A stretch of 64,000 nucleotides of DNA from an uncultured Ectothiorhodospiraceae bacterium (GCA_964636675.1 CAZWUO010000001.1:639-64638), one strand, 5' to 3'; counted from the first letter of the stretch, positions 18,117-48,232 are shown. Numbers and translations: made by a program. Notes: generated by a model not told the origin, from the letters alone.

Positions 18117-18760
18117 TGGAAGCTTTTACTCAGTTAGCAGGCATTGTGGTACCGCTGGATAGGGCTAATGTCGATACAGACGCGATTATCCCTAAGCAGT
18201 TTTTGAAATCTATAAAACGTTCTGGGTTTGGTCCGAATTTGTTTGACGAATGGCGTTATATGGATCATGGGGAGCCTGGCCAAGATGTGCAGAATCGGAA
18301 ATTGAACCCAGACTTTGTGTTGAACCAGGCGCGTTATCTAAACGCGAGTATATTGCTTGCAAGGGAAAATTTTGGCTGTGGTTCAAGTCGCGAGCATGCG
18401 CCATGGGCATTAGAGGATTTCGGAATTAAGGTCATTATTGCACCTAGTTTTGCAGACATTTTCTATAACAACTGTTTCAAAAATGGTATTCTTCCTATCG
18501 TTTTGGATGCATCGATTGTAGATGATTTGTTTGCAAGCACGTTTACGCAGATAGGTTATAGCCTCACCGTTGATTTACCTGCGCAAAAAATAGTGGCTAA
18601 GGGGAATAAAATAATTGAATTTGACATTGATCCGTTTCGCAAAGATTGCTTGATAAACGGTTTAGATGATATTGCTTTAACATTGCGCTATGTTGACGCA
18701 ATAAAAAAATATGAAGCACGCAAAAAAGTAGAATCCCCGTGGTTATTTAACGATCTCTGA
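18116..18760 (+). CDS. leuD: 3-isopropylmalate dehydratase small subunit
   Basis: ATG overlaps the leuC stop (taATGg). LeuD motifs [11 protein letters not shown]. Confidence 0.9.
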
Positions 18761-18797
18761 ACGGCAAATCGCAGCAAGATTCCAATTTGAAAATTTA

Positions 18798-19982: not shown

Positions 19983-20001
19983 TGACTATAGGAATTCATG
20001 A

Positions 20002-21036: not shown

Positions 21037-21218
21037 ATCTTGCATATGTGCTGTTAATTTTACAGCTAGGAGTCTATTTGGAATATGGATGATTCTTCGT
21101 GGCAATTTGCGGTTGCATTGGTTTACCACCTATATCGAAATAATTGCACGCATGTGGAGCAGCAATTCACAGCTTTTGAGCAATTCGTCGATGCGTAACG
21201 CGGATTATTTATTGTAAA

Positions 21219-23663
21219 ATGGATAACATTATCGCTCATCATTTCGTTAAGATCTCGTTAATTCGGAATACTATCCGAATGGGGGTTGCAGCGGTGAAAA
21301 AAACTCTTTTTGTCCTCTTAGCATTGTTAACAATGTTTTATTCATTTCCTGCTCATTCGCTAGATCTGGGTAATATTCAGGTTAACAGTCTCATTAACCA
21401 GAGACTAGAAGCTAGCATAGCCTTAGTAGATGTTGACGAAGCACAGATTTCTCAGCTCGAAATCATGCTCGCTGAGGAAAATATCTTTAAACGTTTGGGG
21501 GTTGAGCGTAACAAACAGTTAGAGACCTTGGTTTTCGCCGTAAAACAAGATGATAAACAACAATATTATATCGAAGTAAGCTCAAGTGATCCTATTTCAG
21601 TAGAGTTTTTGAATTTCCTTATAGAGATTAACTGGCCTGGGGGGCGCTTGCTGAGAGAATTTACCGCATTATTAGACCAGCCTATTTTTCTGGATGATCA
21701 AGCAAAGCAGGTTTCATCCCCCTCTACGGAGCGAGTTGTGTCGCAACAACGAGAAATACAAGCTGAGGATCACGAAAGTCATTCAAATGTGTTATCTGTT
21801 CCGAAATCAGAATCCAATCAAACACCCTTGTTATACGGTCCTGTTGAAAAAAATGAATCGCTTTGGAAAATCGCTGAAAAAATAATGCCTGAAGGGGTAA
21901 CATTGGAGCAAATTATTTATGCGCTGTATTTAGAAAACCCGGAAGCCTTTTATCGCCAAAACATGAATAATTTAAAAGAAGGTTCGGTTTTAAGATTGCA
22001 GAGTAGAAAGAGTATTACCGCAATCTCGCCAGATGATGCCTTGGCTATTATGGCTAAGCATCACAATATATGGATGCAAGAAAAGCGCGAGCGACAAAAT
22101 AGGAGAGCGTCGAACGGTGAAGCGATAGGGTTAAAAAATGAAACTAGCGATGCTTCTTTATCTCGTGCGAAATTTAGTCTCGATAGGGAGGCTCGGTTAT
22201 CATTACTGGTTCCAAATGGCGAGCGATTTTCTGATGCGAGCACGGATAATTCAAGACTGAATAATGCACGTCAGGAGCATTCGTTAGCGAGCGAAACCTT
22301 CGAGGCTGTAAAAAAAGAAAACCAAGTGTTGCAAAATCGACTGCAATCAATCGAAGGGCAAGTGGTTTCTCTACGCAATTTAATCCAATTGAAAGATGAG
22401 CAGCTACGGCTATTGCAAGAAAACAAAAGTAAAAAATTCAATGACAATATTTCTAGTCTTGAGCTAGATATTGCATCCGATAATCAAAAACTGACAGTTT
22501 CAAATATTTCCGAAAAAGATAAATCCGTTGATTCCCTTTGGAGTGATCCCTTAGTACTGGGCACTGGTGTTGGTGTGATTGCTTTACTTGGATCGCTTAT
22601 ATTGCTTTTAAGAAGAGGTAAAAAAACTACTTTAAGCCGTGTTCCGAAAGTAGATGAACCGGATTCTGAAAATAATTTTGTAAACAAAGAACAAGTATTT
22701 ACCGACAGTGATCGATCCGATATTTCGGATATGATTATTGGGCGACAATCACAAGCGAAAAGTATAAATAATGATGACCAAGAAAAAAAGCTTGTTGCGG
22801 ATGGCGACACTATTGAAGTGCCAGGGGGTTCTGATAATTATAGCGGGTCTTCTATTGATCCTATATCAGAAGCGGATGTATATATAGCATATGGTAAATA
22901 CGATAAAGCCGTAATATTATTATCTGAAGCGATTACAGAGCGTCCAGAGAATCACCAGTTAAAGCTAAAGTTATTAGAAGTCTATGCGGCAAGTAATAAT
23001 AAAGAATTATTTATTGTAGCAGCTGAAGAGCTTTATGCTGCGTTAGGCGGTGATACTGCTAACATATTATGGAAACAAGCACTGAGTTTTGCAAAAAATA
23101 TTTGTCCGGAGCATCCGTTGTTTAATAGTGCTGATAGTAGTGCTTCGGAAGAAAAAGATATTACCCCAGAAGCTTTCGACAATATTTCTGTTCCTGAATT
23201 TGATGTGCCTACAACAGATGAATCAAAAATTATGATTCAACCTGCAACAAAAATATTTGTTGATGAGGAACCGCAAGAGTCTAATCGAGTCACACCCGAT
23301 AATTCCTCTGAAAGCTCGCCGGAAAAAATGCTGACCAAAGAAGAGCGAGCGAGCAAAGAAGATATACAGAGTTTGGCTGCGTCATTTTCCGCAGCAGAAG
23401 CGAAAACAGAAAGTACTTTGCATGATGGCATCTCTGATGTTTTCTCTGATCTCGGTTATCAGTCTGAATTTGGTTCTCAAGACATGGACGATGCATCTAT
23501 GTTCTTGCTTGCAGATGAAGTAGGTACCAAATTGGATCTAGCACGCGCTTATATAGAAATGGGTGATAAAACAGGTGCAAAAGAATTATTAAGTGAAGTA
23601 GAAGAAGAAGGAAATGAGCAACAACAGGTTGAAGCTAAGAAACTTATGGAGTATACGAGTTAG
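21219..23663 (+). CDS. fimV: FimV-like peptidoglycan-binding, motility/pilus assembly protein
   Basis: Signal peptide, LysM-like N-region, central TM (VLGTGVGVIALLGSLILLL), acidic C-terminal region with a TPR-like repeat and the FimV C-terminal motif (LDLARAYIEMGDKTGAKELL). The real start is probably internal, GTG 21294 (MKKTLFVLLALL) after GGGGG. Confidence 0.7.
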   Translation: MDNIIAHHFVKISLIRNTIRMGVAAVKKTLFVLLALLTMFYSFPAHSLDLGNIQVNSLINQRLEASIALVDVDEAQISQLEIMLAEENIFKRLGVERNKQLETLVFAVKQDDKQQYYIEVSSSDPISVEFLNFLIEINWPGGRLLREFTALLDQPIFLDDQAKQVSSPSTERVVSQQREIQAEDHESHSNVLSVPKSESNQTPLLYGPVEKNESLWKIAEKIMPEGVTLEQIIYALYLENPEAFYRQNMNNLKEGSVLRLQSRKSITAISPDDALAIMAKHHNIWMQEKRERQNRRASNGEAIGLKNETSDASLSRAKFSLDREARLSLLVPNGERFSDASTDNSRLNNARQEHSLASETFEAVKKENQVLQNRLQSIEGQVVSLRNLIQLKDEQLRLLQENKSKKFNDNISSLELDIASDNQKLTVSNISEKDKSVDSLWSDPLVLGTGVGVIALLGSLILLLRRGKKTTLSRVPKVDEPDSENNFVNKEQVFTDSDRSDISDMIIGRQSQAKSINNDDQEKKLVADGDTIEVPGGSDNYSGSSIDPISEADVYIAYGKYDKAVILLSEAITERPENHQLKLKLLEVYAASNNKELFIVAAEELYAALGGDTANILWKQALSFAKNICPEHPLFNSADSSASEEKDITPEAFDNISVPEFDVPTTDESKIMIQPATKIFVDEEPQESNRVTPDNSSESSPEKMLTKEERASKEDIQSLAASFSAAEAKTESTLHDGISDVFSDLGYQSEFGSQDMDDASMFLLADEVGTKLDLARAYIEMGDKTGAKELLSEVEEEGNEQQQVEAKKLMEYTS

Positions 23664-27950: not shown

Positions 27951-27971
27951 GATTCTGTTTATTCTTAACGC

Positions 27972-28043
27972 TTAAACAGAAGCCAAAGGTAGCAGTACGA
28001 AAAGTAATAGAGTACCGCCAAAAAAGATCAATGGAACTTGCAT
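27972..28043 (-). CDS. Candidate 23-aa hydrophobic peptide MQVPLIFFGGTLLLFVLLPLASV
   Basis: ATG 8 nt after the AGAGGAG SD. Ends at the bidirectional terminator. Below the ORF-track length cut-off. Confidence 0.35.
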   Translation of the reverse strand: MQVPLIFFGGTLLLFVLLPLASV

Positions 28044-28275
28044 TATGTGAACTCCTCTAAAAAGTAACATCCCAAATGCTCCCCTCCCAAAGGGAGCGCC
28101 CTGTAACTGTGAGCAATAACTCGAACAAATAATCAACATCTATAATAAAGTTAATTACTTGAAGATGTAACATAAACAAGTTTAATAATCTCTGCAAGCG
28201 TTATTTATAGAATCGCTTCTAAAGTGGTAATTATCATCAATATGAATTTGTCTCAGATCAGCTGAATAAAGACAT

Positions 28276-28304
28276 AAAAAAAGCCGGTATAAATACCGGC
28301 TTTT
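28276..28304. terminator. Bidirectional hairpin terminator
   Basis: aaaaaagccggtat-aaa-taccggctttt, a perfect 9-bp stem with flanking A-run and T-run. Confidence 0.5.
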
Positions 28305-28368
28305 AAATCACGTGTATAATATCTCACGTAACGCGATGCAATACGTGAGTGAATATGTCGAGTGGATT

Positions 28369-28473
28369 TTAGCCCATCGCCATACCTAAGAACATAAGTC
28401 CAAAAGTTATTACTATAAGGAAAACCACGATTATCGTATCGTCTTGGCTTACGTCAGTTCTTTGTTTTGCCAT
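28369..28473 (-). CDS. Candidate 34-aa single-TM peptide MAKQRTDVSQDDTIIVVFLIVITFGLMFLGMAMG
   Basis: ATG 9 nt after the AGAGG SD. Paralogous to the peptide at 28740..28844. A hairpin (ctcacgta...tacgtgag) and a terminator follow on the minus strand. Confidence 0.4.
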   Translation of the reverse strand: MAKQRTDVSQDDTIIVVFLIVITFGLMFLGMAMG

Positions 28474-28694
28474 TGGGTATACCTCTTTTATTCAAAATTG
28501 TTAGATATTTATAAACTAAAACATTAATGTAGCAAGACAAACATTAGCAGCAGCAGGATTCGAACGCAAGCAGGCACCCATAGAATATTTATGGGTAAGG
28601 GATAAGGGCAGTTTATTAACTGCTTTCAATGGGGAAACTGGTTAAACTATGTTCTTTTCTATCTCTCCAATATATTAGCAAGAATTGAATAATA

Positions 28695-28719
28695 AGAGGG
28701 TGCGGCAAATACACCCTCT
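28695..28719 (-). terminator. Hairpin terminator downstream of the small peptide gene 28740..28844
   Basis: agagggtg-cggcaaata-caccctct followed on the minus strand by a T/A-rich run. Confidence 0.45.
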
Positions 28720-28739
28720 TAGTAAGGTATGCCCTAATC

Positions 28740-28844
28740 CTAGGCCATATTAACGCCAATAATACCTAATACAAGCGTCATAACAGCTAGATAAACTACA
28801 AACAATGTATCGTGGGTATGAATTAGACCGTCATTCTGGCTCAT
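28740..28844 (-). CDS. Candidate 34-aa single-TM peptide MSQNDGLIHTHDTLFVVYLAVMTLVLGIIGVNMA
   Basis: ATG 7 nt after the AGAGGGG SD and its own hairpin terminator. Aligns with the 28369..28473 peptide: DT[LI][FI]VV[YF]L[AI]V[MI]T[LF].L..[IL]G..M[AG]. Confidence 0.45.
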   Translation of the reverse strand: MSQNDGLIHTHDTLFVVYLAVMTLVLGIIGVNMA

Positions 28845-29116
28845 GAGTGTTCCCCTCTATTTTATTAGTTAGCACGTGATTGCCATCAAAGGCGGATAAA
28901 CCATAGCAGTTTACTAATGTATAAATCAAGTATTTTTTATAAAATATAATGTGTGATAAATGGTAACCCTATGATTTATGGATTATTGCAGGGGCATAGC
29001 AAATAGGTGCTTAGGTTTAACAAATGAGGAAATCATATAAACCAAGTATTTTGCTTATGTAATGACACTTTTGCCAGATAACATCTTCATCACCGCGGAG
29101 AGTGATTGGTTTTGTT

Positions 29117-31639
29117 TTAACCATTTCTTCTATGTTTCTTTTTTTTCGCTTGTCCATGATTATTATATTTATGGGGCTTTTTATATTTTCTTTTATAAGA
29201 TTTCTTTTTTTTCCCATGATGCTTTCGAATCTTTACATGATGTTGTTCCATTTTGTGGTGCTTGTGGGCATATTTATGCGAGCGCTTTTTAGAATATTTT
29301 CGCAAGTGTTTTACTTCATAATAATATGTTTTTGATTTAATATTTCCAGATTCATCGCTTGCTGTCACTACAATGGTATATATTAAGTTTTCATTTGATC
29401 GAGGAATTCTGGTTTTTTTCAACCAGATATCCCATCCATCTTCGGTTTTTCTTATATCCCAAAATGGCTTATTGTACCGATGGCGTCTAGGATGTTTCTT
29501 AATATCCAGGTTAGTGGAAATGTTGATGTCTAGGTTTGGTGATTCATCAACGATGTCCTTTAAGCGATTAATGCTAAGCATGTGCTCGAGCTTACGATTT
29601 GGTGGCCAAAGTCTATTTTTAGTTTCAATGATCGTAAAAGTAGGAGCGGTAGTATCAATAATGATTATCTCTTGTACAGCAACACTTGTGTTTCCGTTGC
29701 TATCGGTTGCATGCCAAGTAACGAGTGTTTGACCAAGCGGCAACGCAGTTGGAGCATTATTAGTAATGGTTACTGGAAAGATATCTTCTGCTTGCGCCGA
29801 GCCAATATTAATTTTGGTTGCAAGACTAGTCGCCTCAGAAATAATATTTTCGGGTGTACTAAGAATAGGAGGTGTCGTATCAGCAACTTGAATGGTTGAT
29901 GTTAAGCTTGAGGCATTGCCACTTGCATCAATTGCACTCATATTTATATCGGTAAACCCGACCGGAAACCACGAGTCATTTATACTGATAGTGGTGTTAG
30001 GGATACTGCAATTGTCTGTTGCGTTGATCGTCACCAAGTAGTGGGCACCTTGTAACGAAGTGGCCTCTAACATGATGTACGATGGTGTGTGAATTTGGGG
30101 TGGTGTATAGTCGTTAATAGAAATTATTACATTATCTGAATCTAATGCATCCGAATTATCACGTACTTGTAAGTTAATGTTATGAATTCCGGTTGCCAAC
30201 GGAAGTACTGGATTCATTAAGTTATTGCTGCCAAAAGTGCCTGTCCAGGTATAGGCCAACGACTGCTCAGAGTCAGGATCGTTTGATTGGCTACCATCGA
30301 GTTGTATGTTTGTAGTAAGGCCGTTACACAATAAAACTTGATCAATTCCCGCATTTGCGACGGGCTGAATATTGGGTATGGTATCTCTCACACGAAGATT
30401 AATTTGGGTGTGATTATTCGAACCCAAATTTGACGCTGAAGACGAAAATGTCAACATCTCCCCGTTATCGTTTATTGCGCTAACGAAGTCAATATTAGCA
30501 TTCAGTTGCTGCCCTTGGTGAGTCAAACTGACTCGTTCGGTGGTACCTAAGATAGTATCGTAGACAAATAAATCGCTTGAATCGTTTGAGTCGTTGCTGA
30601 CCAAGTTGCTTGCTTTTGATACATATGACACAAAACGACCGTTATTACTCATTTTGGGTATTAGACTAACGTTGTTTGCTTGAATCCCCTCCGAGGATTT
30701 ACTGATGAGAATAATTGAATCGGTAGTTTTGTTGTACAAAAAAACATGTCTAAATGTTGCATTTGTACCAGCCACTAAATTCTTAGCGTCCGATATAAAT
30801 GCAATGTATTTTCCGTTGCCACTGATATAAGGGTTTCTATTGTTGGCGACAAGAGGGCTGCCATCAAAGGTTTTGCTGATTAACTCAGAAGTACCTGTTT
30901 CTCTGTCCCAAAGAAAGACATCATACTTATTGTTGTCATCAATCGGGTCAATGTTATTCGCAACAGAAATGTAACTGATGTATCTGCCATCATCACTGAT
31001 GCTTGGAGAATTGCTGTCCCCATTAGCGCTGGATCCATCAGGAGAGGATGAGATTAATTGTACCGAATTGTTAACTACATCAAATATGAATATATCGCGA
31101 AATTGATTGTTATCGTTAGGCGCTAGGTTTGTAGCTCTGGAGTGAAAAACGATATATTTTCCATTACCACTAATTTGAGATAACGAACTTATCCCATTCG
31201 GAATGCTTCCATCATGGGTTTTACTCACTAGTGTTGTAATGTTATTTGTTATATTTCTTAAAAATATATTACCCTTGCTTCCCGAGTTAGCGGTGAGATT
31301 GTTTGCAAAAGACTCGAACACTGCCAATGTCCCATTGCTATCTATATCTGCCCGAAGGCTATTTGCATTTCCTGGATCCCCTGAATTTGAAACACTTAAT
31401 CGAGTGAATTTATTTGTTGTTCGGTCAAGCAGATAGATGTTTCTATTTGTTACCCCATCATTTATAAGATTTCTGGCAGTAGATTCGAATACGATTCTAT
31501 TAGCCTTTGCGCTTATTGAGGGAGAATAGCTTGGACCATTTCCCAATTCGCTTCCATTCTTCGAAATTATAAATGTTTCAGCAGCATTTACCGCAAAACA
31601 AAACACGAATAGAAAACTATATTGGAACAGAGCTTTCAT
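29117..31639 (-). CDS. Secreted 840-aa protein: N-terminal PD40/TolB-like beta-propeller repeats, HYR/Ig-like modules and an extreme Lys/His-rich C-terminal tail
   Basis: GGAGG SD and signal peptide MKALFQYSFLFVFCFAVNAAE. Repeated NGKYI(V/A)F.S.A.NL units. HYR-like blocks (NCSIPNTTISINDSWFPVGFTDINMSAIDASGN, VTWHATDSNGNTS). Last 65 aa about 45% Lys and 20% His. Start overlaps the upstream gene's stop (ATGA). Confidence 0.7.
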   Translation of the reverse strand: MKALFQYSFLFVFCFAVNAAETFIISKNGSELGNGPSYSPSISAKANRIVFESTARNLINDGVTNRNIYLLDRTTNKFTRLSVSNSGDPGNANSLRADIDSNGTLAVFESFANNLTANSGSKGNIFLRNITNNITTLVSKTHDGSIPNGISSLSQISGNGKYIVFHSRATNLAPNDNNQFRDIFIFDVVNNSVQLISSSPDGSSANGDSNSPSISDDGRYISYISVANNIDPIDDNNKYDVFLWDRETGTSELISKTFDGSPLVANNRNPYISGNGKYIAFISDAKNLVAGTNATFRHVFLYNKTTDSIILISKSSEGIQANNVSLIPKMSNNGRFVSYVSKASNLVSNDSNDSSDLFVYDTILGTTERVSLTHQGQQLNANIDFVSAINDNGEMLTFSSSASNLGSNNHTQINLRVRDTIPNIQPVANAGIDQVLLCNGLTTNIQLDGSQSNDPDSEQSLAYTWTGTFGSNNLMNPVLPLATGIHNINLQVRDNSDALDSDNVIISINDYTPPQIHTPSYIMLEATSLQGAHYLVTINATDNCSIPNTTISINDSWFPVGFTDINMSAIDASGNASSLTSTIQVADTTPPILSTPENIISEATSLATKINIGSAQAEDIFPVTITNNAPTALPLGQTLVTWHATDSNGNTSVAVQEIIIIDTTAPTFTIIETKNRLWPPNRKLEHMLSINRLKDIVDESPNLDINISTNLDIKKHPRRHRYNKPFWDIRKTEDGWDIWLKKTRIPRSNENLIYTIVVTASDESGNIKSKTYYYEVKHLRKYSKKRSHKYAHKHHKMEQHHVKIRKHHGKKKKSYKRKYKKPHKYNNHGQAKKKKHRRNG

Positions 31640-32064
31640 AGTGAACCTCCATCTATCTCGCTGAATATAGGGAAATTCAGATTATCCTGAGTGCTGTTTT
31701 TTGCTTGTAAATCGAATACTAAAATGGGGTCTTGAGAAACGGAGCTTGCGGTTGTGTAAGTCGTAAAGCTCCAATAGGATTTGTACATACTCGAAATGGG
31801 TAAGTTTCCGATTTCGAGTATATGATTGGTTGGGTTACTCATTATATCGATACTACGAGGAATGAGAACGACGGAGTTAAAATTCTTCAAGGTGTTGTTA
31901 ATAATAGTGATCTCATAAACTGCGCTGGTGTAATCATCTTTCGAAAATACTGAAACCAAGCGATGTTTAACAGAGATAGCATTTTGCTCAGCCATCAAAT
32001 GACCTGGCCAAATTAATAAGACGCAAATCATAAATGCCAATATATACCTGTAATGATTCATCAC
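31636..32064 (-). CDS. Small secreted hypothetical protein (142 aa), translationally coupled to the downstream 840-aa gene
   Basis: Signal peptide (ILAFMICVLLIWPGHLMAEQ). The stop overlaps the start of the 29117..31639 gene. Confidence 0.55.
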   Translation of the reverse strand: MMNHYRYILAFMICVLLIWPGHLMAEQNAISVKHRLVSVFSKDDYTSAVYEITIINNTLKNFNSVVLIPRSIDIMSNPTNHILEIGNLPISSMYKSYWSFTTYTTASSVSQDPILVFDLQAKNSTQDNLNFPIFSEIDGGSL

Positions 32065-32080
32065 TATCCCAACCCCTCTT

Positions 32081-33946
32081 TTATTGCACTACTTCTAAAG
32101 CAATAGCGCCGTTAACCGTAATATCGTTGTTTACAAAATTTGAGTCTTCGACTGAATCGTTGACTGAATAAGTTAAGCCAACTCCAGCGGGATTATTGCT
32201 CGTTGGATCGGTTAGTGCGCTAAATGCACCATCAATCTGCCCGGTGGCTGAGCCAGATGCGCCTGTGTTTGCAAACATCGTAGTCATACTGCCGCTAAAG
32301 GTGGCGTTTGCATTGTTGATAGGAACGTTAATGGCTTGAGCGGTGATTTCATAATTTGTTGCATCAGGATCATTGATGTCTAACTTGATATCTGCAGATA
32401 TCGTTTGATTGGAAAAATTCGCGGTTAGGGAGGTTTGAGATCTGTTAAGTGTGCCGATATTTCCAAAGTTGTCGGTAGGTGAGGTATTGCCAATGACTGC
32501 ATAATGTGCAACACCGGTAGATGGCAAGGTAATTTGCTCTGCTGATTCATCCATTAACAACCAATGTAGTTTATTTTGGGTAAGATCGATGTTGGATGCT
32601 GTCGTGCCGTCTGATAGCTTCATGCTGCCAGATTCCCACCGCCCCCAAGAAATTCCGAGAGCTGCATTTGAACCACTATCTGCATTTTTTGCAGTTCCTA
32701 TGCTCACCGTTTGTTCTTCGGTAATTAAAGCACTGTTCAATATTTTAATCTTGAACGAAGTGAGTCGTTGGTTTGTGTCGATTTGAAAATCACTCGTTTT
32801 ACGGGAATATACTGCACTCGATATGTTCAAACCATTGTTGGAAAAAATGTTGTTAGATACTGCAATATTATTCTGAGAAATTACCGGTGGCATAATAATA
32901 TTGGGAGTGGATTCGTCCGTTGAAGAATCATTTGGAGGGGGAATACTAATACTGGCTTCAGTAGAGGCATCTTCTTTTGAATGTGTATTTGAGACGATTA
33001 ACAGAACATTTTTTTTGTCCTCAATGGCAGTTTCATTTGATTGCGCGAGTATTTCGGATGATTCAGTATTTCTGACTAACACCTCTTCTTCAAGTTTGTC
33101 ATCAACAAAAATATCATCTGATTTGACCGTTGAAATGATATCTTCTGATACCGAGCTATTTGTTACACGATTATTTTCGGGGTTGACGAATGAGTCTTGT
33201 TTGCCTGCGATTGATGTTGTTACTTTGGAGTTGTTAACGATGTCTTTTGTTATAGATTTTTCTGCAATATTGGAATCAGATTGATTTGATTTTATCGCAG
33301 CAAATAATAACTCTCCAGGTGCTGAATCTAAAAGCAGGGGTTCAGATGAGAAGTCTGGAACATAACCATATTCACTGGCATCAATTTCTACGCTGCCTCC
33401 TTCATTAGCTACTACAACTCCGCCAGCCATAACGCCAATATATAACCCATTATCGTTATTGCAGTCTTCGTCACACAATCGTGCGCTATAGTCTGTTCCT
33501 CTAATGCCTATTGTTGCGATTGGAGTTGCAACTTTATACGATTTTTTATTTGCTTCACCTATAGACCCGGTAACACTTCTAAAGCTTCCCTTTAACAAGT
33601 TGAAGAATGTTCTGTCATTTTCAATATTTTCATTAAAAGTGAATATGTCAATTCTAAATCGACTATTTGGCCTGATGGCAATAAGTCCACCATCGGCCAT
33701 TCTTAGTTGGGCTTGACCGTTTTCTGATGTTATAATTGTGTCTCCCTCATTAATATCATCACCTCGATAAAGTCGTTTTATCTGTTTCGAGTCAGAATTT
33801 TTTATATGTACACCACCCAGAGAAAATAAAACTTTTCCCGCAGCAGAATAGGCTGTTATAGGAATGAATAAAATAAATAACATAAAAATAGTTTGTAATT
33901 TAGTTGTGTTGTTTTGGAAAAAATAAACTGGGTTTTCGGTAGTCAT
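32081..33946 (-). CDS. Secreted 621-aa protein: signal-peptidase-I type leader, FecR-like N-domain, long Ser/Asn/Thr/Asp-rich linker, C-terminal beta-rich domain (candidate Slam-type cargo)
   Basis: AGGAGG SD. Leader MLFILFIPITAYSAAGK with no lipobox Cys. FecR-like block GKVLFSLGGVHIKNSD...GDDINEGDTIITSENGQAQLRMADGGLIAIRPNSRF. C-terminal 200 aa of alternating hydrophobic/polar strands (GVAHYAVIGN, LTANFSNQTISADIKLDI, ATFSGSMTTMFA, AGVGLTYSV) ending VVQ. Confidence 0.7.
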   Translation of the reverse strand: MTTENPVYFFQNNTTKLQTIFMLFILFIPITAYSAAGKVLFSLGGVHIKNSDSKQIKRLYRGDDINEGDTIITSENGQAQLRMADGGLIAIRPNSRFRIDIFTFNENIENDRTFFNLLKGSFRSVTGSIGEANKKSYKVATPIATIGIRGTDYSARLCDEDCNNDNGLYIGVMAGGVVVANEGGSVEIDASEYGYVPDFSSEPLLLDSAPGELLFAAIKSNQSDSNIAEKSITKDIVNNSKVTTSIAGKQDSFVNPENNRVTNSSVSEDIISTVKSDDIFVDDKLEEEVLVRNTESSEILAQSNETAIEDKKNVLLIVSNTHSKEDASTEASISIPPPNDSSTDESTPNIIMPPVISQNNIAVSNNIFSNNGLNISSAVYSRKTSDFQIDTNQRLTSFKIKILNSALITEEQTVSIGTAKNADSGSNAALGISWGRWESGSMKLSDGTTASNIDLTQNKLHWLLMDESAEQITLPSTGVAHYAVIGNTSPTDNFGNIGTLNRSQTSLTANFSNQTISADIKLDINDPDATNYEITAQAINVPINNANATFSGSMTTMFANTGASGSATGQIDGAFSALTDPTSNNPAGVGLTYSVNDSVEDSNFVNNDITVNGAIALEVVQ

Positions 33947-33958
33947 TCGGTCTACCTC

Positions 33959-35293
33959 CTATTGTATTTTCCATTGAACAGACAAATTTATTGAAAATCT
34001 GTCGTAATCAAATAGAGAAACGGTTGAAATATTTTTTATGTACTTTATTTGTGGAATAATACTTAAATTTTTTCTAATTATTATATTTATGCCACTGGAA
34101 AAATTTGCTTTTTTTTCTTTGCGAATTGTCCCAATAAATGGTTTGTTATAATTTGAAGTAGATAATTTTATCTGTGTGAAAAATTGTTTTTTCCCGCCTA
34201 AAAAATGGTTTGTTATGATTTTTGTATGTAAAGAATTTTTTTCATACGGCGATGATTTCAATTTTGGCGCGTCATATTCAATATATCCAGCCAATAAAGC
34301 GGTAGATGGAATAAATAATTTGTATGAAAATTTGGTGTTAATTTCGATTGATCCTTGGTAGCGATCACGTAATGAAAAATTCGATGCATGTGTGTAGTAA
34401 GATATTGTGGAGCTAGTACCGAATCTAATGGTTGGCGAAGCAAAGTAATTCCATTGTGCAGTCGATCTTATGATTCCGGTATTAAATTCGGTTCCCAGAT
34501 AAAATGCGGTGACTGATATATTTGTGTTAGTTGAAAATTTGAGTCTCTTATACGACATTCCGATTGAGGACATTGCACCCGACGAGTTTACAAATGACGC
34601 TCGATTGTATCGATTATCAAATATCGCTGCACTAAGATAAATGTCAGTTCGTTTGTTAGATGAATATGTTGCTGTATTATTCATTGTTAAGCCCATAAAC
34701 TCCGAAGGCGTTGCTTTACTTTCTTGGGTTAATATTAATCCAAGAAAGGATTCATTTTCTGTGGCTGAATTCACATTGTCGTCAAATCCGCCTTTTAGTG
34801 TGACGTAGGTCTCGAAATTAATTGGTTTTTCATACAGTTTGGCATTGATTTTTTTCAACGAAACTGTGATAAATTGTTGCAATTCTCGCGGTGGTTGCAA
34901 GCTTTGAGATATTTCAAATTGTCTTTTTGCTTGATGCAGTTCATGTGCTCGATAATACGCCCGACCTAACTCAAAATGAGCTCCACCGAAGTTCGGGTGT
35001 ATGGCTACGGATCTTTCTAAAGCGAATATAGCGATGCTGGTTTTTCCGGTTTCTAATGCGGATAAACCCAATAAATAGTCAAACTGAGGGTTGCCCGCGT
35101 TAGTTTCCGCTAAGGGGTTTAGCAGCGAGAATGCTCTTATAGATTGGTTATTTGCAATAAGAACTTCGGCTTTTTCCAATAGTTCTTTTAACACATTTTT
35201 ATTCGCGGCTTCATTAATAGATTCGCTTGCTGTTACCTTGGGCAAAAAAATGGATAAAGCGAGAAGGAGAAAAAGCCATTTTGTATTTTTCAT
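33959..35293 (-). CDS. Outer-membrane protein: signal peptide, periplasmic TPR repeats, C-terminal beta-barrel (Slam / DUF560-like surface-protein translocator candidate)
   Basis: Signal peptide MKNTKWLFLLLALSIFLPKVTASE. TPR-like helices (FDYLLGLSALETGKTSIAIFALERSVAIHPNFGGAHFELGRAYYRAHELHQAKRQFEISQSL). About 290-aa C-terminal region of amphipathic beta-strands with aromatic girdle residues. First gene of a 4-gene operon, 12-nt gap to the next gene. Confidence 0.7.
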   Translation of the reverse strand: MKNTKWLFLLLALSIFLPKVTASESINEAANKNVLKELLEKAEVLIANNQSIRAFSLLNPLAETNAGNPQFDYLLGLSALETGKTSIAIFALERSVAIHPNFGGAHFELGRAYYRAHELHQAKRQFEISQSLQPPRELQQFITVSLKKINAKLYEKPINFETYVTLKGGFDDNVNSATENESFLGLILTQESKATPSEFMGLTMNNTATYSSNKRTDIYLSAAIFDNRYNRASFVNSSGAMSSIGMSYKRLKFSTNTNISVTAFYLGTEFNTGIIRSTAQWNYFASPTIRFGTSSTISYYTHASNFSLRDRYQGSIEINTKFSYKLFIPSTALLAGYIEYDAPKLKSSPYEKNSLHTKIITNHFLGGKKQFFTQIKLSTSNYNKPFIGTIRKEKKANFSSGINIIIRKNLSIIPQIKYIKNISTVSLFDYDRFSINLSVQWKIQ

Positions 35294-35500
35294 TTTTTAG
35301 TTCGCTACCAGAAAACCTTTCATACATAAGCAATTTTATCGCTAGCTGATAATTTTTACTGCGCTTGGTATCACAATAATTCTTTTTGATTTTGACGCAG
35401 TTCACGGTTTTGCTAAAAGCAAGCAAGAATTTCATTAAAACACCATATTAATAATGGTTTTATGGGGATTGTTGAATTGTTTTTTTTCTGTTTGGTATGA

Positions 35501-35619
35501 CTCATCGACTATTCACGGCATAGCGCGTTCATCCTCTGAGTGAATCCGATAAACAGGGCTATTCATTTTATAATCAATCGCTTAGCGATACCTCATGGCA
35601 GTCAACCGCGGAATCTAGG
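35501..35619. repeat. Truncated copy of the MITE-like repeat (right terminal inverted repeat plus internal region)
   Basis: ...catcctctgagtgaatccgataaac...cgcttagcgatacctcatggcagtcaaccgcggaatctagg. Aligns with the right half of the 24510 copy and the interior of the 15420 copy. Right flank tttaa. Confidence 0.6.
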
Positions 35620-35732
35620 TTTAAGATAAATTGCTTTCAAGTCAACTTGTCGAGCAACCGATAAACGAGTGGGTAATGGTCATAAATCAAATAAAACCTT
35701 GAGATACAAACGGTAATAACGGAGAAAACACG

Positions 35733-36029
35733 ATGTCGGTAACGAGTAAGATAGATGGTGACAATGTGATGATTACAATCAGTGGGAGGTTTAATTTTAA
35801 TGATCATGTACAATTTAGAAATGCTTATAAAGATGTGCCTCCGAATGCTACTTACACAATGGATATGAGCAATACGGAATATATGGATAGTTCTGCTTTA
35901 GGAATGTTACTTCTGCTACGTGAGCATGCAGGAGGAGACTCATCTGATATTATTATTGCAGGTAGTCCCCCAGACATAAAGAAAATACTCAATATCGCAA
36001 ATTTTCAAAAACTGTTTGAAATACGTTAG
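35733..36029 (+). CDS. STAS-domain anti-sigma-factor antagonist (HsbA/SpoIIAA-like)
   Basis: 98 aa. STAS pattern with phosphorylatable Ser in DSSALGMLLLL. Confidence 0.75.
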   Translation: MSVTSKIDGDNVMITISGRFNFNDHVQFRNAYKDVPPNATYTMDMSNTEYMDSSALGMLLLLREHAGGDSSDIIIAGSPPDIKKILNIANFQKLFEIR

Positions 36030-36043
36030 TTTTTTTTAATAAC

Positions 36044-37750
36044 ATGAAAGTATTAGTGGTCGATGATGATGCAACGAATAGGCTCGTCTTAAAGGGCTTA
36101 CTCGAAAAAGAAGATCATGATGTTATGCTGGCAGTAAACGGTGTTGAGGCTATTCAACAGTATGAAAATGGCAGTCCAGACCTGATTTTAATGGATGTTA
36201 TGATGCCAGAAATGGATGGCTACGAGGCGACCAGAGAAATCAAAAAGAGGTGTGGTAGCCGATTTGTTCCGATAATATTTTTAACCGCAGTTAGTGGTAA
36301 TGAAGCGTTAGTAACCTGTCTCGAATATGGTGGTGACGATTATATCGGGAAACCTTTCAACCGAACCGTATTAAGCGCAAAAATTGAAGCAATGAACCGC
36401 ATTGTTTCTCTTTATTATCAAATCCAAAACCAAAAAGAAGAGCTTGAAACCCATAAGCGTCATGTTCAGCGCGAAACTGAAGTAGCAGAGAAAATATTTA
36501 ATGGTATTCTTGAGCGCAGTGATTTAAATGTAGACTTTATCAATACCTTAAGACGTTCAGCCGAAGCATTTAATGGTGATATCGTGCTTGCCACGCGTAA
36601 TCCAAACGGGGGGATGAATATATTAGTGGGTGATTTTACAGGTCATGGTTTAGCCGCTGCTATTGGAGCAATGCCTGTCGCTGATGTGTTTTATGGAATG
36701 TCCAAAAAAGGCTTTGAGCTTGAAGACATTGTATCGGAAATAAATAAAAAATTACGTGTTGTCTTACCCATGGGGAGATTTTTGGCGGCGTGTATTATTC
36801 ATGTGGATACACGTTGCGAATACCTAAAAATATGGAACGGAGGAATGCCAGACGTTCTTATTTACCGACCGAGTGCGAAACAAGTAGTAGAATACTTGCC
36901 TTCTGAGCACGTTCCGTTGGGAATCTCTTCTCCTGTTCAGTTTGAAACGCAAGCCACCCGGGTGAAAATCAGCCCTGGCGACTATTTATATATTTATTCT
37001 GACGGTGTCGTTGAAACCACAAACGAACACGATGAGTTATTTGGAATGGATAGATTGGTTGAAGTTATTACTACGTTTGATGGCAACGAGGTTATCAGTG
37101 AATTAGAGGCATCTTTAAGTCGGTTCTCTAATACGCTTCCGCAAGCTGATGATATTACTTTAATGGAGTTTCATTGTAATCCAACTCATTTATTGCAACT
37201 CGATAATGAGATATCAGTTGGTAAAACATATGCAACCAGTTGGAGTATGTCGTTTATTTTTGAAACAGATACCTTACAGCGATTAGATCCAGTCACTTTT
37301 TTAATGAAAACCTTGAGCGAAATACAAGGCCTGCGAAGTCACAGTCAAAGTTTGTTTATGATCATTTCAGAGTTGTTTAGCAATGCGCTTGAGCATGGTG
37401 TGCTTGGCTTAGATTCGAAGTTAAAGACGACGCCTGAGGGATTTGCGCAATATTATTTTTTACGAGAAACTTTATTAAAAAAGATGAAATATGCTTATAT
37501 AAAGTTCAGTTTTTCACAGAAAATCATCGGTAGAGGAGGTGAAATAACCATCGGGGTTGAGGACTCAGGAGATGGGTTTGACTATGCTTCGTTAGGTGGG
37601 GAGAAACAATCAATGCCGCCTGAAAGTGTTAAATCGGGACGCGGACAGGTGCTTATTGCTGATTTGTGTGAGACTATTACCTATAAAGGAAAAGGAAATG
37701 TGGTTGAAGCCGTTTATTCTTGGAATGATACCCCCCTTATCGCGCATTAA
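36044..37750 (+). CDS. Three-domain partner-switching regulator: REC receiver + PP2C (SpoIIE/RsbU-like) phosphatase + RsbW-like GHKL serine kinase (HsbR-like)
   Basis: REC (MKVLVVDDD...DLILMDVMMPEMDG). PP2C block (GDFTGHGLAAAIGAMPV...YIYSDGVVE). GHKL N-box ELFSNALEHG, G1 DSGDGFD, G2 GRGQVLIA. Confidence 0.8.
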   Translation: MKVLVVDDDATNRLVLKGLLEKEDHDVMLAVNGVEAIQQYENGSPDLILMDVMMPEMDGYEATREIKKRCGSRFVPIIFLTAVSGNEALVTCLEYGGDDYIGKPFNRTVLSAKIEAMNRIVSLYYQIQNQKEELETHKRHVQRETEVAEKIFNGILERSDLNVDFINTLRRSAEAFNGDIVLATRNPNGGMNILVGDFTGHGLAAAIGAMPVADVFYGMSKKGFELEDIVSEINKKLRVVLPMGRFLAACIIHVDTRCEYLKIWNGGMPDVLIYRPSAKQVVEYLPSEHVPLGISSPVQFETQATRVKISPGDYLYIYSDGVVETTNEHDELFGMDRLVEVITTFDGNEVISELEASLSRFSNTLPQADDITLMEFHCNPTHLLQLDNEISVGKTYATSWSMSFIFETDTLQRLDPVTFLMKTLSEIQGLRSHSQSLFMIISELFSNALEHGVLGLDSKLKTTPEGFAQYYFLRETLLKKMKYAYIKFSFSQKIIGRGGEITIGVEDSGDGFDYASLGGEKQSMPPESVKSGRGQVLIADLCETITYKGKGNVVEAVYSWNDTPLIAH

Positions 37751-37904: not shown

Positions 37905-38588
37905 TTGATCGTTGTTATAGCAGATGATCATGCCATTGTCAGGGAAGGTGTTATTTATTCTTTAAAGACTCATTTTGGCGAAGAGACACAGGTTTTAGAA
38001 GCAGAAGACTCTCCGAGTTTAGTCGCATTACTTGAGCAAAATAAAAATATCGATCTCATCTTACTGGATCTCATGATGCCAGGTGCAAACGGGCTTTCCG
38101 TGTTAAGAAAAATATGTAATGAATGGCCTGGAAACTCCGTAGTGGTGTTGTCCGCATCAGAAGACTCTACGCTGATGCGTAAATCAATTGATATAGGCGC
38201 CGCAGGCTTTATTCCAAAATCATCACCTCGAGAGGTCATGATGAGTGCTATTAGGTTAGTGCTTGCTGGAGGAGTATATATACCGCCTAAAAGTTTATTG
38301 TCCATAGAAGCAGTCTCAACTTCCTCCGAAGCAACGGAAAATAATAAGTTACCTGATCCAAAAATACTCGCTCCCAAGCTAACCGATAGACAACGACAGG
38401 TATTGATTGGTATCGCTGAAGGCAAAACGAATAGAGAGATCGGAGCAGGGCTAGAACTGTCAGAATATACCATCAAGATTCATGTAACGGCTATATTCAA
38501 AAAACTGCAGGTGAACAATCGCATGCAATCTGTGTTAGTTGCTAAAGAGTTAGGCTTATTCAAGGTGGGTGACCTCACGCCAGACTAA
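37905..38588 (+). CDS. NarL/FixJ-family response regulator (REC + LuxR-type HTH)
   Basis: TTG start after aaggggggtga. REC (DLILLDLMMPGANG). C-terminal LuxR HTH (LTDRQRQVLIGIAEGKTNREIGAGLELSEYTIKIHVTAIFKKL). Confidence 0.8.
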   Translation: MIVVIADDHAIVREGVIYSLKTHFGEETQVLEAEDSPSLVALLEQNKNIDLILLDLMMPGANGLSVLRKICNEWPGNSVVVLSASEDSTLMRKSIDIGAAGFIPKSSPREVMMSAIRLVLAGGVYIPPKSLLSIEAVSTSSEATENNKLPDPKILAPKLTDRQRQVLIGIAEGKTNREIGAGLELSEYTIKIHVTAIFKKLQVNNRMQSVLVAKELGLFKVGDLTPD

Positions 38589-38784: not shown

Positions 38785-39537
38785 TTGACGATTATGCAAA
38801 AAAGAAGTAGTGAATCTTCAAAGTACATCGCTTTGGTTGCTGAAGATCATAAATATAATATGATATTGATGGCGAGCTTGTTAGAGAAAAAGAGTGTTAC
38901 TGTTATTCAGGCACGCAATGGTAAGGCCGCCGTTGAGCAATATTTGGCAAATAAAGTGGATATTATATTTATGGATATACACATGCCAGTCATGGACGGC
39001 ATTGAAGCGATTAAAAAGATTCGGACCTTAGAAAAGGGGCAAAATCACGTGCCTATTGTAGTGCTTACGGCCGATGTTTTTATTCGGGAAAATACAGGCT
39101 TAGACACTACTCTAATTGATGAAATTTTACTAAAGCCTATCGTTAGCCAAGATTTATGGAGAGCTTTCGAAAAATTAGCCATCAAAAATTCTCTATCTGA
39201 AAAATCTTGTGAGGCTAAATCGATGCCACAAGCGAAAAGTCCTCAAACAGTCATTTCCAAACATTCTCATAAATTACCCGATGTGCTTAAAGAAAAATTT
39301 ATTAAAGAAGTACACTTATTATATGGGTTAGTTGAGGAGCAATATCGTCTAGGTAATTCAGATAAATTGCAAGAATTACTGCATAAGTTAGCGGGTATGA
39401 GCGGATGTTTTGACGCGACAGAAATGACCGGCATTTGCAATGAGTTGTTGTCCGCGATTAAGAACGAAGATTTAGTGGCAATTGATTTGGCTTTTCAAAA
39501 GTTAACCCAGTATAACGCTGAGTTACCTACCCATTAA
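38785..39537 (+). CDS. REC receiver fused to a C-terminal Hpt phosphotransfer domain (HptB-like function)
   Basis: REC (DIIFMDIHMPVMDG) and a C-terminal Hpt-like helix with LHKLAGMSGCFDA (the HxxKG motif). Confidence 0.75.
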   Translation: MTIMQKRSSESSKYIALVAEDHKYNMILMASLLEKKSVTVIQARNGKAAVEQYLANKVDIIFMDIHMPVMDGIEAIKKIRTLEKGQNHVPIVVLTADVFIRENTGLDTTLIDEILLKPIVSQDLWRAFEKLAIKNSLSEKSCEAKSMPQAKSPQTVISKHSHKLPDVLKEKFIKEVHLLYGLVEEQYRLGNSDKLQELLHKLAGMSGCFDATEMTGICNELLSAIKNEDLVAIDLAFQKLTQYNAELPTH

Positions 39538-43224: not shown

Positions 43225-45663
43225 ATGAAAGAAAAATTGGTATTGGTTGGCAACGGTATGGCAGGTGTTCGTACGCTAGAGGAACTCCTAAAAATTGCGC
43301 CCGATAAATACGCTATTACTGTTTTTGGTTCCGAACCCTATGGGAATTACAATCGTATATTATTATCGCCTGTGTTAGCAGGAGAGAAGTCGTTAAATGA
43401 AATTATGCTCAATGATGAGCAATGGTATAAAGATAACGATATTACTTTGCTTAAAGGTAATAAGATTACAAAAATTGACCGCAAAAATAAAACGGTCATC
43501 GCTGAAGATGGCACCCAGGCCTCCTATGATCGTCTATTGCTAAGCACCGGCTCCAATCCATTTATGATCCCTATTCCCGGTATCGAGTTGCCGGGTGTTA
43601 TCAGTTTTCGTGATGTGCATGATGTTGATCAAATGTTAGATGCGAGTAAAAAGCATAAACATGCCGTAGTCATCGGTGGTGGGTTACTGGGTCTGGAAGC
43701 CGCGAATGGGTTAATGACCCAAGGCATGAACGTCACCGTTGTTCATCTTGGTGACACATTAATGGAACGCCAGATGGATACGGTATCCGGAAAAATGTTG
43801 CAAACCTCGTTAGAGCAACGTGGTTTGCATTTTTTAATGGAACACGCCACAGAAGCGATACTGGGCGAGGATAGAGTCAAAGCCGTGCGTTTTAAAAGTG
43901 GCCTTGAGATAGCTGCAGACATCGTAGTGATGGCCGTAGGTATACGGCCAAATACTGAGCTTGCTGAAAGCGCAGGTATTTATGCTGAACGTGGTATCGT
44001 CGTTGATGACACCATGCAAACATATGATCCAAAGATTTACGCAGTCGGTGAATGTGTGCAACATCGCGGTTCAACCTATGGACTCGTTGCTCCGCTGTTT
44101 GAGCAAGCGAAGGTTTGTGCAAACCATCTCGCGGAATACGGTATCGGTCGATATCAAGGATCGGTGACCTCGACAAAACTAAAAGTGACCGGCATTGATT
44201 TATTTTCAGCCGGTGATTTTAACGGTGACGAGCAGACTGAAGAGTTGGTGATGCAAGATGTGTCACGTGGCATTTATAAAAAGTTAGTCATTAAGGATAA
44301 TAAAATAAGTGGCGCAGTCATGTACGGTGATACGGTAGATGGTGCATGGTATTTCCAATTATTGCGTGACGAAACAGATATCTCGGATATTCGGCATAAC
44401 TTGCTTTTTGGGCAAGCGCACTTAGGTGATTCTGGGCATGGTGGGCATAATCTTGCGGCTCAAATGACCGACGCTACCGAAGTCTGTGGTTGTAATGGAG
44501 TATGCAAAGGCGATATTACTAAAGCGATTACCAGTAAAGGCTTGTTTACCTTAGACGATGTCAGAGCCCATACCAAGGCTTCTGCTTCCTGTGGATCGTG
44601 TACCGGTCTGGTAGAACAAATTATTGCCTCGACGCTTGGTGGTGATTATTCAGAAGCATCAAAAGTAAAGTCAATCTGTAAATGTACAGAGCATACACAC
44701 GAAGAAATTCAAGCTGAAATAAAGGCCCATAAGCTCACAAGCTATCGTGCAGTAATCGATAAAATGGATTGGCATACTGCGGATGGTTGTCATGTTTGTA
44801 GACCGGCACTTAATTATTATGTATTAGCGGCATGGCCAGCGGAAGCAGTTGATGATCCTCAATCACGTTATATCAATGAACGTGTGCATGCAAACATTCA
44901 AAAAGATGGCACCTATTCGGTAGTGCCGCGCATGTGGGGAGGGGTAACAAACCCTAAAGAGTTACGCGCGATTGCAGATGTCGCTGAAAAATACGATGTC
45001 CCTACGGTAAAAGTCACCGGTGGTCAACGTATCGATTTACTCGGTGTCAAAAAACAAGATCTTCCGTTAATGTGGAAAGACTTAAATGATGCAGGCATGG
45101 TTTCTGGTCATGCTTATGGTAAGTCTCTGCGAACGGTTAAAACCTGTGTTGGTAAGGAGCATTGTCGCTTCGGCACCCAATATTCTATGGCATTAGGGAT
45201 TAAGCTCGAAAAACTAACCTGGGGTTCATGGATGCCACACAAATTTAAAATCGCGGTATCGGGTTGTCCGCGTAATTGTGCAGAAGCAACCATTAAGGAC
45301 TTTGGCGTGGTCGCAGTAGATTCGGGTTATGAATTACATGTCGGTGGTAATGGTGGTATAAAAGTCCGCGCAACCGACCTTTTGTGCAAGGTAACGACGG
45401 AAGAAGAAGTCATCGAATACTGCAATGCCTTTATTCAAATGTATCGAGAGCAAGCGCATTATTTAGAGCGCACTGCGCCGTGGATAGAACGTGTAGGATT
45501 GTCGTTTCTGAAAACCCATATTGTCGAGGATGAAAAAAATAGAATAGCGTTATCCAAGCGTTTTGTTGAGTCGCAATCCTATGTGCAAAAAGATCCTTGG
45601 GAAGAAAGAACAACGGGTGATTACGAAAAACATCAGTTTGTTACTTTAAAAGATGTCTCGTAA
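43225..45663 (+). CDS. nirB: Assimilatory NAD(P)H nitrite reductase large subunit
   Basis: FAD/NAD Rossmann motifs (LVLVGNGMAG, AVVIGGGLLGLEAA), BFD-like [2Fe-2S] region and siroheme/4Fe-4S Cys cluster (CGCNGVC, CVGKEHC). 812 aa. Confidence 0.9.
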   Translation: MKEKLVLVGNGMAGVRTLEELLKIAPDKYAITVFGSEPYGNYNRILLSPVLAGEKSLNEIMLNDEQWYKDNDITLLKGNKITKIDRKNKTVIAEDGTQASYDRLLLSTGSNPFMIPIPGIELPGVISFRDVHDVDQMLDASKKHKHAVVIGGGLLGLEAANGLMTQGMNVTVVHLGDTLMERQMDTVSGKMLQTSLEQRGLHFLMEHATEAILGEDRVKAVRFKSGLEIAADIVVMAVGIRPNTELAESAGIYAERGIVVDDTMQTYDPKIYAVGECVQHRGSTYGLVAPLFEQAKVCANHLAEYGIGRYQGSVTSTKLKVTGIDLFSAGDFNGDEQTEELVMQDVSRGIYKKLVIKDNKISGAVMYGDTVDGAWYFQLLRDETDISDIRHNLLFGQAHLGDSGHGGHNLAAQMTDATEVCGCNGVCKGDITKAITSKGLFTLDDVRAHTKASASCGSCTGLVEQIIASTLGGDYSEASKVKSICKCTEHTHEEIQAEIKAHKLTSYRAVIDKMDWHTADGCHVCRPALNYYVLAAWPAEAVDDPQSRYINERVHANIQKDGTYSVVPRMWGGVTNPKELRAIADVAEKYDVPTVKVTGGQRIDLLGVKKQDLPLMWKDLNDAGMVSGHAYGKSLRTVKTCVGKEHCRFGTQYSMALGIKLEKLTWGSWMPHKFKIAVSGCPRNCAEATIKDFGVVAVDSGYELHVGGNGGIKVRATDLLCKVTTEEEVIEYCNAFIQMYREQAHYLERTAPWIERVGLSFLKTHIVEDEKNRIALSKRFVESQSYVQKDPWEERTTGDYEKHQFVTLKDVS

Positions 45664-45690
45664 AACAACAAAATATAGATAGGCTAAGCA

Positions 45691-45999: not shown

Positions 46000-46027
46000 C
46001 AAGTAAACCCATTGACTGGAGTATTAT

Positions 46028-48214: not shown

Positions 48215-48232
48215 TGTTAGCAGGAGTCTTAT

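Follow-up and report, generated by a model that had tools for sequence, protein, structure and literature searches.

Positions 29,117 to 35,293 of a 64,000-nucleotide stretch of DNA from an uncultured Ectothiorhodospiraceae bacterium (GCA_964636675.1 CAZWUO010000001.1:639-64638; the whole stretch is called the window here) carry a four-gene operon that probably encodes a divergent outer-membrane translocator of the type XI secretion system (T11SS; Slam/DUF560) together with a dedicated partner protein. This reading draws on gene structure, family relationships, strict gene pairing and predicted folds, and from these we infer transport, its direction, the final locations of the domains, and the roles of the third and fourth genes. 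The T11SS itself is already known and widely predicted; the novelty lies in a clade of outer-membrane proteins (OMPs) whose partner has a FecR plus handle-barrel architecture, and the operon represents a system that is T11SS-like and whose cargo or partner belongs to a new class.

The open reading frame (ORF) listing places all four genes on the minus strand: gene 1 (33959..35293) codes for the OMP (444 aa), gene 2 (32081..33946) for the FecR-barrel partner or cargo (621 aa), and gene 3 (31636..32064) and gene 4 (29117..31639) for exported proteins of 142 aa and 840 aa, respectively. Genes 1 and 2 are separated by 12 nt and genes 2 and 3 by 16 nt, and genes 3 and 4 overlap by 4 nt, exactly the tight packing reported in the first-pass annotation of this DNA; the overlap at the start of gene 4 suggests translational coupling. 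At the N-terminus of each of the four products, a hydrophobic stretch leads into an AxA-like site; the best 10-residue Kyte-Doolittle mean is 2.7-3.4, compared with only 0.8-1.5 for three adjoining cytoplasmic regulators. Signal peptides were called from this hydropathy score and by inspection, not with a dedicated predictor, and inspection of the N-termini found no lipobox in any of the four products; the earlier description of proteins with their own signal peptides and no lipobox thus holds for the entire operon.

Gene 1 as a putative Slam-like translocator

Gene 1 had been described as coding for a signal peptide, TPR repeats, and a C-terminal barrel of about 290 aa, for which 14 strands were expected, and its predicted structure has all of these parts. 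Several TPR Pfam models match residues 35-135, and the AlphaFold model (pLDDT 94.6) has eight helices at residues 24-153, forming the TPR domain (nt 34835-35224, minus strand), followed by 14 strands that make up a beta-barrel of 286 residues (aa 158-443, nt 33965-34822, minus strand). The closest solved barrels to this model are CymA and OmpG, both of which are 14-stranded.

The relationship to the DUF560/Slam proteins emerges from the wider family. A homolog search with the OMP identified five relatives, of which two distant ones, alignable over their full length, bear PF04575 (gathering score, 22 bits). A profile search of 1.84 billion cluster representatives identified 1195 at E<=1e-30, nearly all of them ~440 aa long and matching end to end. 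Among 80 aligned family members, PF04575 is matched by 69 (best 6e-15) and TPR_Slam by 23, and the profile of the OMP family (A2) scores the window OMP at 4e-110. At the corresponding genomic position, Sideroxydans (L072) and Gallionella (L039) encode OMPs that match PF04575 with 50.7 and 50.1 bits, respectively, over model positions 3-288. Table S1 of Grossman 2021 assigns Slit_2212 of Sideroxydans lithotrophicus, as well as OMPs of Gallionellales, to network cluster 2 (236 sequences); by the account of that paper, the nine clusters other than cluster 1 hold no characterized protein. By transitive homology and predicted architecture, we assign gene 1 to the DUF560/Slam (T11SS OMP) superfamily as a divergent member. 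When the PDB was searched by sequence with the OMP, gene 2, and the A1 and A3 profiles, the only matches were to TPR proteins and the 5ix9 anchoring domain; no Slam or TbpB entry came up.

Gene 2 and its pairing with the OMP

A homolog search with gene 2 identified 241 relatives, many of them full-length, and their alignment falls into three parts: a conserved N-terminal domain, a variable low-complexity linker, and a conserved C-terminal domain with the motifs GISWGRW, LP.TG.A.Y, and L.A.F.N. The N-terminus of the window protein is hydrophobic, has an AYS-AAG site, and lacks a lipobox; it is followed by a beta domain resembling FecR and retention modules (aa 37-206, nt 33329-33838, minus strand), identified by Pfam (FecR, 1.2e-11) and in the AlphaFold model; this domain is absent from the first-pass account. 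The linker (aa 218-343, nt 32918-33295, minus strand) is predicted to be disordered, with pLDDT below 50, and is followed by a confidently predicted all-beta domain with a TbpB/hemophilin-type handle and 8-strand barrel (aa 358-619, nt 32090-32875, minus strand). The FecR-like domain contains a CxxxC pair, C158/C162 (nt 33461-33475), which is nearly invariant in 47 gene 2 homologs and suggests a disulfide or metal site.

The predicted fold of the C-terminal domain is that of known Slam cargo, as had been anticipated from the sequence. Foldseek comparison of the gene 2 model with the PDB ranks LbpB (6e-6) and an fHbp chimera (2e-5) first, followed by the FecR-fold proteins PupR and BDI_1681. 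Fold comparison scores are 10.0 for the TbpB C-lobe, 9.9 for Haemophilus haemolyticus hemophilin, 9.8 for Vibrio harveyi HphA, 9.7 for HpuA, 9.5 for both fHbp and Acinetobacter baumannii hemophilin, 8.8 for NHBA, 7.9-8.5 for LbpB, and 6.4 for the Slam-dependent Pasteurella protein PmSLP. Alignments to the TbpB/hemophilin-type structures span 160-190 residues, corresponding to the handle plus the barrel, and a handle joined to an 8-strand barrel is the fold that defines Slam cargo (PMC5449769). The OMP family thus has DUF560 similarity and gene 2 carries a predicted C-terminal barrel, the two points on which the first-pass proposal of a Slam module had turned.

Some relatives of gene 2 are far longer. 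The Sideroxydans homolog at L072 (9746-16252), of 2168 aa, combines FecR with a separate TbpB_B_D match (aa 1755-1894, 40.2 bits against a cutoff of 26), and the Gallionella homolog at L067 (9953-17005) is 2350 aa long; both have three to five tandem handle-barrel units after the FecR domain. In this respect they resemble the multi-lobed cargo proteins TbpB, LbpB, and the Sphingomonas and Psychrobacter surface proteins; in contrast, window gene 2 has a single unit, and in every member of its family a FecR-like domain comes first and a lipid anchor is absent.

The pairing of the two genes was assessed in a scan of species-representative genomes, which gave at least 565 confirmed relatives of gene 2 among 600 pattern matches. 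We kept 80 loci, which derive from Gamma- and Betaproteobacteria, mainly metagenome-assembled genomes (MAGs) plus Pseudoalteromonas denitrificans, and searched the ORFs called in them with the family profiles. In all 54 of the barrel-bearing homologs with at least 1.5 kb of upstream sequence, an OMP gene lies directly upstream on the same strand, and the spacing between the two genes is mostly -16 to +190 nt. The order of all four genes is identical in three further contigs, L001, L003, and L012 (L001, L002, and L004 being one metagenomic contig recovered three times), with gene 2 at 54% identity to the window in L001 and 33% in L003. This recurring order, together with the OMP-gene 2 pair in 54/54 informative loci, rules out chance adjacency. 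In the reverse direction, a FecR protein follows the OMP in each of three homologs found by OMP similarity alone, one of them in the cultured Pseudoalteromonas carrageenovora. The handle-barrel typifies a large subfamily that includes window gene 2. Three loci have two tandem FecR-like paralogs after the OMP (L088:2003-4192, L089:1509-3697, and L064:9968-12335), and those of L088 and L089 have Pro-rich C-terminal tails and no detectable handle-barrel.

Candidate routes across the outer membrane

The operon has much in common with the characterized T11SS/Slam systems, including Neisseria Slam1 and Slam2, Xenorhabdus NilB and HrpB, and Haemophilus TepS. It shares with them an OMP made of periplasmic TPRs and a predicted 14-strand barrel, and a following gene whose Sec-exported product ends in a handle and 8-strand barrel of the TbpB/hemophilin/fHbp/HpuA type; the lack of lipidation in the partner is also a property of hemophilin-type cargo. 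It differs in that the window OMP is too divergent for a direct PF04575 match, with relatives in the uncharacterized environmental cluster 2 and not in the studied clusters 1 and 3, and in that the FecR/retention-like 'effector' of the partner is not among the roughly ten cargo architectures of PMC12282271. Moreover, there are no TonB or TonB-dependent receptor genes near the operon, and some members of the OMP clade pair with FecR proteins that have no barrel.

In the published Slam model, a C-terminal motif of the unfolded cargo is recognized, the cargo passes through the Slam channel, and folding takes place outside (PMC9090332). By analogy, we consider it reasonably likely that the gene 2 product is exported by Sec, is engaged by the gene 1 product, and moves across the outer membrane C-terminus first. 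It would stay unfolded in the periplasm until recognized by the TPR domain, the 14-strand barrel, or both, and the handle and 8-strand barrel would fold at the cell surface; the linker and FecR-like domain would either come after the barrel or stay behind. The products of genes 3 and 4 would be co-transcribed, Sec-exported accessory or passenger proteins.

Several observations weigh against a T11SS translocator with a dedicated partner. In the Pfam scan, the window OMP has no match to PF04575 at E<=1 and scores only E 0.046 with TPR_Slam (14.6 bits against a cutoff of 35.2), and its clade relatives at L001, L003, and L012 likewise lack a PF04575 match, so that superfamily membership rests on transitive homology; the similarity to DUF560/Slam models expected in the first-pass annotation is therefore found in the family but not in the window protein itself. 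Similarly, gene 2 has no Pfam match to TbpB_B_D (PF01298) or Lipoprotein C, TbpB_B_D matches just one of the 47 gene 2 family members, and that weakly (E 0.074), and the gene 2 family profile compares poorly with the TbpB_B_D segment of L072 (E 0.008, probability 5%). Across all four products, neither Pfam nor NCBIfam models for DUF560 or TbpB_B_D gave a match. With so weak a link in sequence, the assignment of gene 2 as a cargo-type protein is a structural one, from the predicted model.

The remaining points concern what ties the two proteins together. Among relatives of gene 2 that have the FecR domain and no C-terminal domain, the OMP is present in six and absent in six, and the FecR partners recovered in the reverse search are short (357-392 aa), ending in a Pro-rich tail or matching the barrel marginally at best. 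Because these short partners of distant OMPs have no clear barrel, what accompanies the OMP in every case is the FecR-like domain; the barrel may not be what links partner to translocator, and the FecR-like module may be the constant partner element.

That last point bears on a tentative alternative, the main rival reading, in which the outer membrane is crossed only by the handle-barrel and a portion of the linker, and the FecR-like domain stays in the periplasm, where it folds and acts as a stopper. Gene 2 would then be a lipid-free protein spanning the outer membrane and held in the gene 1 pore, in the manner of the LapA/MpIBP retention module in its TolC-like pore, and its periplasmic domain could bind gene 4, gene 3, or the TPR domain of the OMP. 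FecR domains are periplasmic in their known setting, and here this domain, rather than the barrel, is the constant companion of the OMP. The pairing is strict and one-to-one although a lipid anchor is absent, the nearly invariant CxxxC suggests oxidative folding, and unfolded cargo passes C-terminus first in the published Slam model (PMC9090332).

The likeness to the LapA/MpIBP module (PDB 5ix9, NCBIfam NF033682) lies in a short N-terminal beta domain of similar motifs and fold, at the head of a long, flexible, surface-directed protein. In gene 2, however, retention-module scores all fall under the curated cutoffs (for NF033682, 21.6 bits against 50), and the resemblance remains at the level of the fold. 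LapA and MpIBP depend on a type I secretion system (T1SS) with a TolC-like pore and on LapG/LapD control, whereas no LapG, LapD, or T1SS (LapEBC) genes are found nearby (16.7-50.2 kb, the range covered for all such neighbors). Known soluble T11SS cargo such as the hemophilins are fully released, and either topology is compatible with tandem barrels and linkers as long as ~2000 aa. An elaboration that we regard as rather doubtful is that the whole forms a device spanning the outer membrane, with one or more barrels outside, the linker running through the Slam-like pore, and the FecR-like domain plugging or docking at the periplasmic side; such a device would tether large proteins to the cell surface or relay a surface signal to periplasmic partners.

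The two remaining genes raise the question of which product is moved. Gene 3 has no Pfam or NCBIfam match, and in a set of 5.8 billion proteins it finds only two, itself and one 79% relative; among the kept loci, homologs occur only in L001, L003, L007, and L012, always between genes 2 and 4. Gene 4 has PD40 (TolB-like) beta-propeller repeats, PKD/HYR Ig-like domains, and a basic tail (Pfam: PD40 1.2e-8, HYR 3.2e-7, K319L-like PKD 6e-4); in the tail (aa ~766-840, nt 29117-29341), 42 of the 75 residues are K, R, or H and 2 are acidic. Gene 3 is followed by a gene 4 homolog in L001, L003, and L012, and each of these homologs has a signal peptide and basic His/Lys-rich tails or inserts. Across all loci, the gene 2 handle-barrel profile has no match to gene 3, gene 4, or any ORF other than gene 2 homologs. 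Of the three cargo genes proposed at first pass, gene 2 has a predicted cargo-type fold, whereas the barrel profile does not detect genes 3 and 4, which are confined to close relatives.

Elsewhere, the gene immediately after gene 2 often codes for a very large protein. In 30 sampled loci, this product has Big_9 domains in 14, cadherin-like domains in 10-11, HYR in 6, and PKD in 5, and ~17 of the 30 carry a lipobox (L-x-[AG]-C-G-G; for example, LVAC-GGG). In L010, L013, L025, L030, L031, L035, L040, L044, L045, L078, L079, and L087, the gene after the FecR gene encodes a giant protein (1000-2100+ aa) that contains Big_9, cadherin, or HYR repeats; at the N-termini of these proteins the lipobox is followed by a Gly/Ser run and often by a domain with a 'KGP' motif; they are probably surface lipoproteins genetically linked to the OMP-FecR pair. 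In 5 of the 30 loci (L008, L024, L056, L069, and L074), the gene after gene 2 instead codes for an unrelated cytoplasmic oxidoreductase, a conserved protein of ~790 aa with cNMP-binding, pyridine-nucleotide-disulfide oxidoreductase, and 4Fe-4S domains; L008, L024, L069, and L074 are Woeseiaceae-type or unclassified MAGs. The components that recur as a trio are the Slam-like OMP, the FecR(-barrel) protein, and a large surface-type protein or lipoprotein with Ig repeats. Gene 4 is the counterpart of the giant Ig/cadherin-repeat lipoproteins that hold this slot elsewhere, which suggests, by analogy, a role for the module in surface binding or adhesion.

Given such a trio, gene 2 could be a periplasmic or surface adaptor, with the third protein (gene 4 here, the giant Ig/cadherin lipoproteins elsewhere) being the true cargo that is flipped in Slam-like fashion. 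The frequency of large lipobox proteins, Big_9, and cadherin-like domains after gene 2 is consistent with this, as are the presence of the same trio in cultured P. carrageenovora and the constant association of gene 4 homologs with the pair in the clade of the window. We think it improbable, however: known T11SS cargo all have a handle-barrel, which the downstream proteins, by profile, do not match; the third gene is variable, down to the cNMP-binding/Fe-S oxidoreductase in 5 of 30 loci; and gene 4 is not a lipoprotein.

Cell-surface signaling of the FecR type, in which gene 2 would be an anti-sigma regulator linking an outer-membrane receptor to an extracytoplasmic function (ECF) sigma factor, is very improbable and we rejected it. 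The FecR Pfam match and the similarity in fold to the anti-sigma domains of PupR and BDI_1681 are what speak for it, but its defining features fail. The cytoplasmic anti-sigma domain of the FecR/PupR regulators, and the transmembrane helix that anchors it in the membrane, are absent from gene 2, which starts instead with a cleavable signal peptide; no ECF sigma factor or TonB-dependent transducer is encoded within ~10 kb on either side; and the OMP with which gene 2 pairs is a TPR barrel with 14 predicted strands, in contrast to a receptor with 22. Hardly credible at all is an exopolysaccharide porin, with gene 1 as a PgaA/BcsC/AlgE-like polymer exporter amid unrelated periplasmic proteins, which we dismissed because the barrel has 14 predicted strands and not 16 and because neither the operon nor its surroundings contain glycosyltransferase or synthase genes, and against which the PF04575 matches of the OMP family and the strict pairing with a protein of Slam-cargo fold also count.

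Genomic setting and place among T11SS families

The operon has a G+C content of 0.36-0.39, resembling its flanks, and is surrounded by core genes, among them leuC, leuD, leuB, asd, and htpG, a gene resembling fimV, and genes for nitrite and nitrate reductases. Its location is therefore the chromosomal backbone, with no obvious island. The leuCDB-asd-fimV set lies at 16698-23663, and a NirB-like nitrite reductase, a molybdopterin oxidoreductase, and an Fe-S/DmsC-like protein are encoded at 43225-50197. The genes at 43225-50197, with the leuCDB-asd-fimV set, point to a free-living gammaproteobacterium and give no support to the Legionellales label of the first-pass annotation; the sequence occurs in metagenome assemblies, and the nearest relatives of the window locus are in unclassified Gammaproteobacteria MAGs. 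An interval of ~1.1 kb (27951-29116) separates the htpG terminator from gene 4; it has no ORF longer than 66 aa and has a terminator-like hairpin on the minus strand (28279-28304), and the corresponding side of L001 has insertion sequence (IS) transposase genes. An Rfam scan of 27.5-36.2 kb gave only sub-threshold matches, located on terminator hairpins, those in the 1.1-kb interval being to sRNAs.

Upstream of gene 1 is a divergent intergenic region (35294..35732), presumed to contain the promoter, which ends at a STAS gene. Within it, the block 35348-35395 has 80% identity to L001 over 40 nt, with 68% over 35330-35445 and 47% in the rest of the spacer, and this block may be a regulator or promoter site; in promoter and terminator scans, matches were no commoner than in shuffled sequence. 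Four regulatory genes, identified by Pfam, are transcribed divergently on the plus strand, and code for the STAS protein (35733-36029), a response regulator-PP2C phosphatase-HATPase_c_2 protein (36044-37750), a response regulator-GerE/LuxR protein (37905-38588), and a response regulator-Hpt protein of 250 aa (38785-39537); the gene for a BTAD/MalT-like protein comes after them. At the position of 38785-39537, L001 and L003 have a hybrid histidine kinase (HAMP-HisKA-HATPase-receiver-Hpt) of 897 and 905 aa, respectively, and the window gene, with receiver and Hpt alone, seems to be missing the sensor-kinase part.

The regulatory set adjoins the four-gene cluster in the same order and orientation in L001 and L003 and is absent from more distant loci. 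It resembles the HptB-HsbR-HsbA partner switch of Pseudomonas aeruginosa, with which it shares STAS, response regulator-PP2C-kinase-like, and Hpt proteins, the comparison being one of domain architecture only. Solely from synteny in three contigs, we infer that these genes may control the operon.

Full-text searches found no publication joining DUF560, Slam, or T11SS to a FecR cargo or partner. One preprint names FecR merely as an iron-related neighbor filter, and the word is absent from two T11SS bioinformatic surveys, which examined clusters 1 and 3 only. In the T11SS literature, experimentally verified cargo is reported for cluster 1 OMPs only, and that of the other clusters, mostly from water and soil bacteria, is 'as yet unknown'. 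The FecR-barrel cargo class is one that BLAST or Pfam TbpB_B_D searches would miss, which may explain why earlier surveys do not mention it.

A large environmental OMP clade, with at least 1195 cluster representatives and at least 565 gene 2 relatives, thereby gains a concrete and strictly co-inherited partner. Cultured hosts with the system are P. carrageenovora, P. denitrificans, and probably Sideroxydans lithotrophicus ES-1, for which the OMP alone is on record. If gene 2 were threaded through the OMP and held there by its FecR-like domain, it would represent a new way of anchoring proteins on Gram-negative surfaces. Should the pair form a device spanning the outer membrane, the tethered proteins would be of the Ig/cadherin or propeller type, such as gene 4 and the giant lipoproteins, and the environmental T11SS clusters would gain a function distinct from plain secretion.

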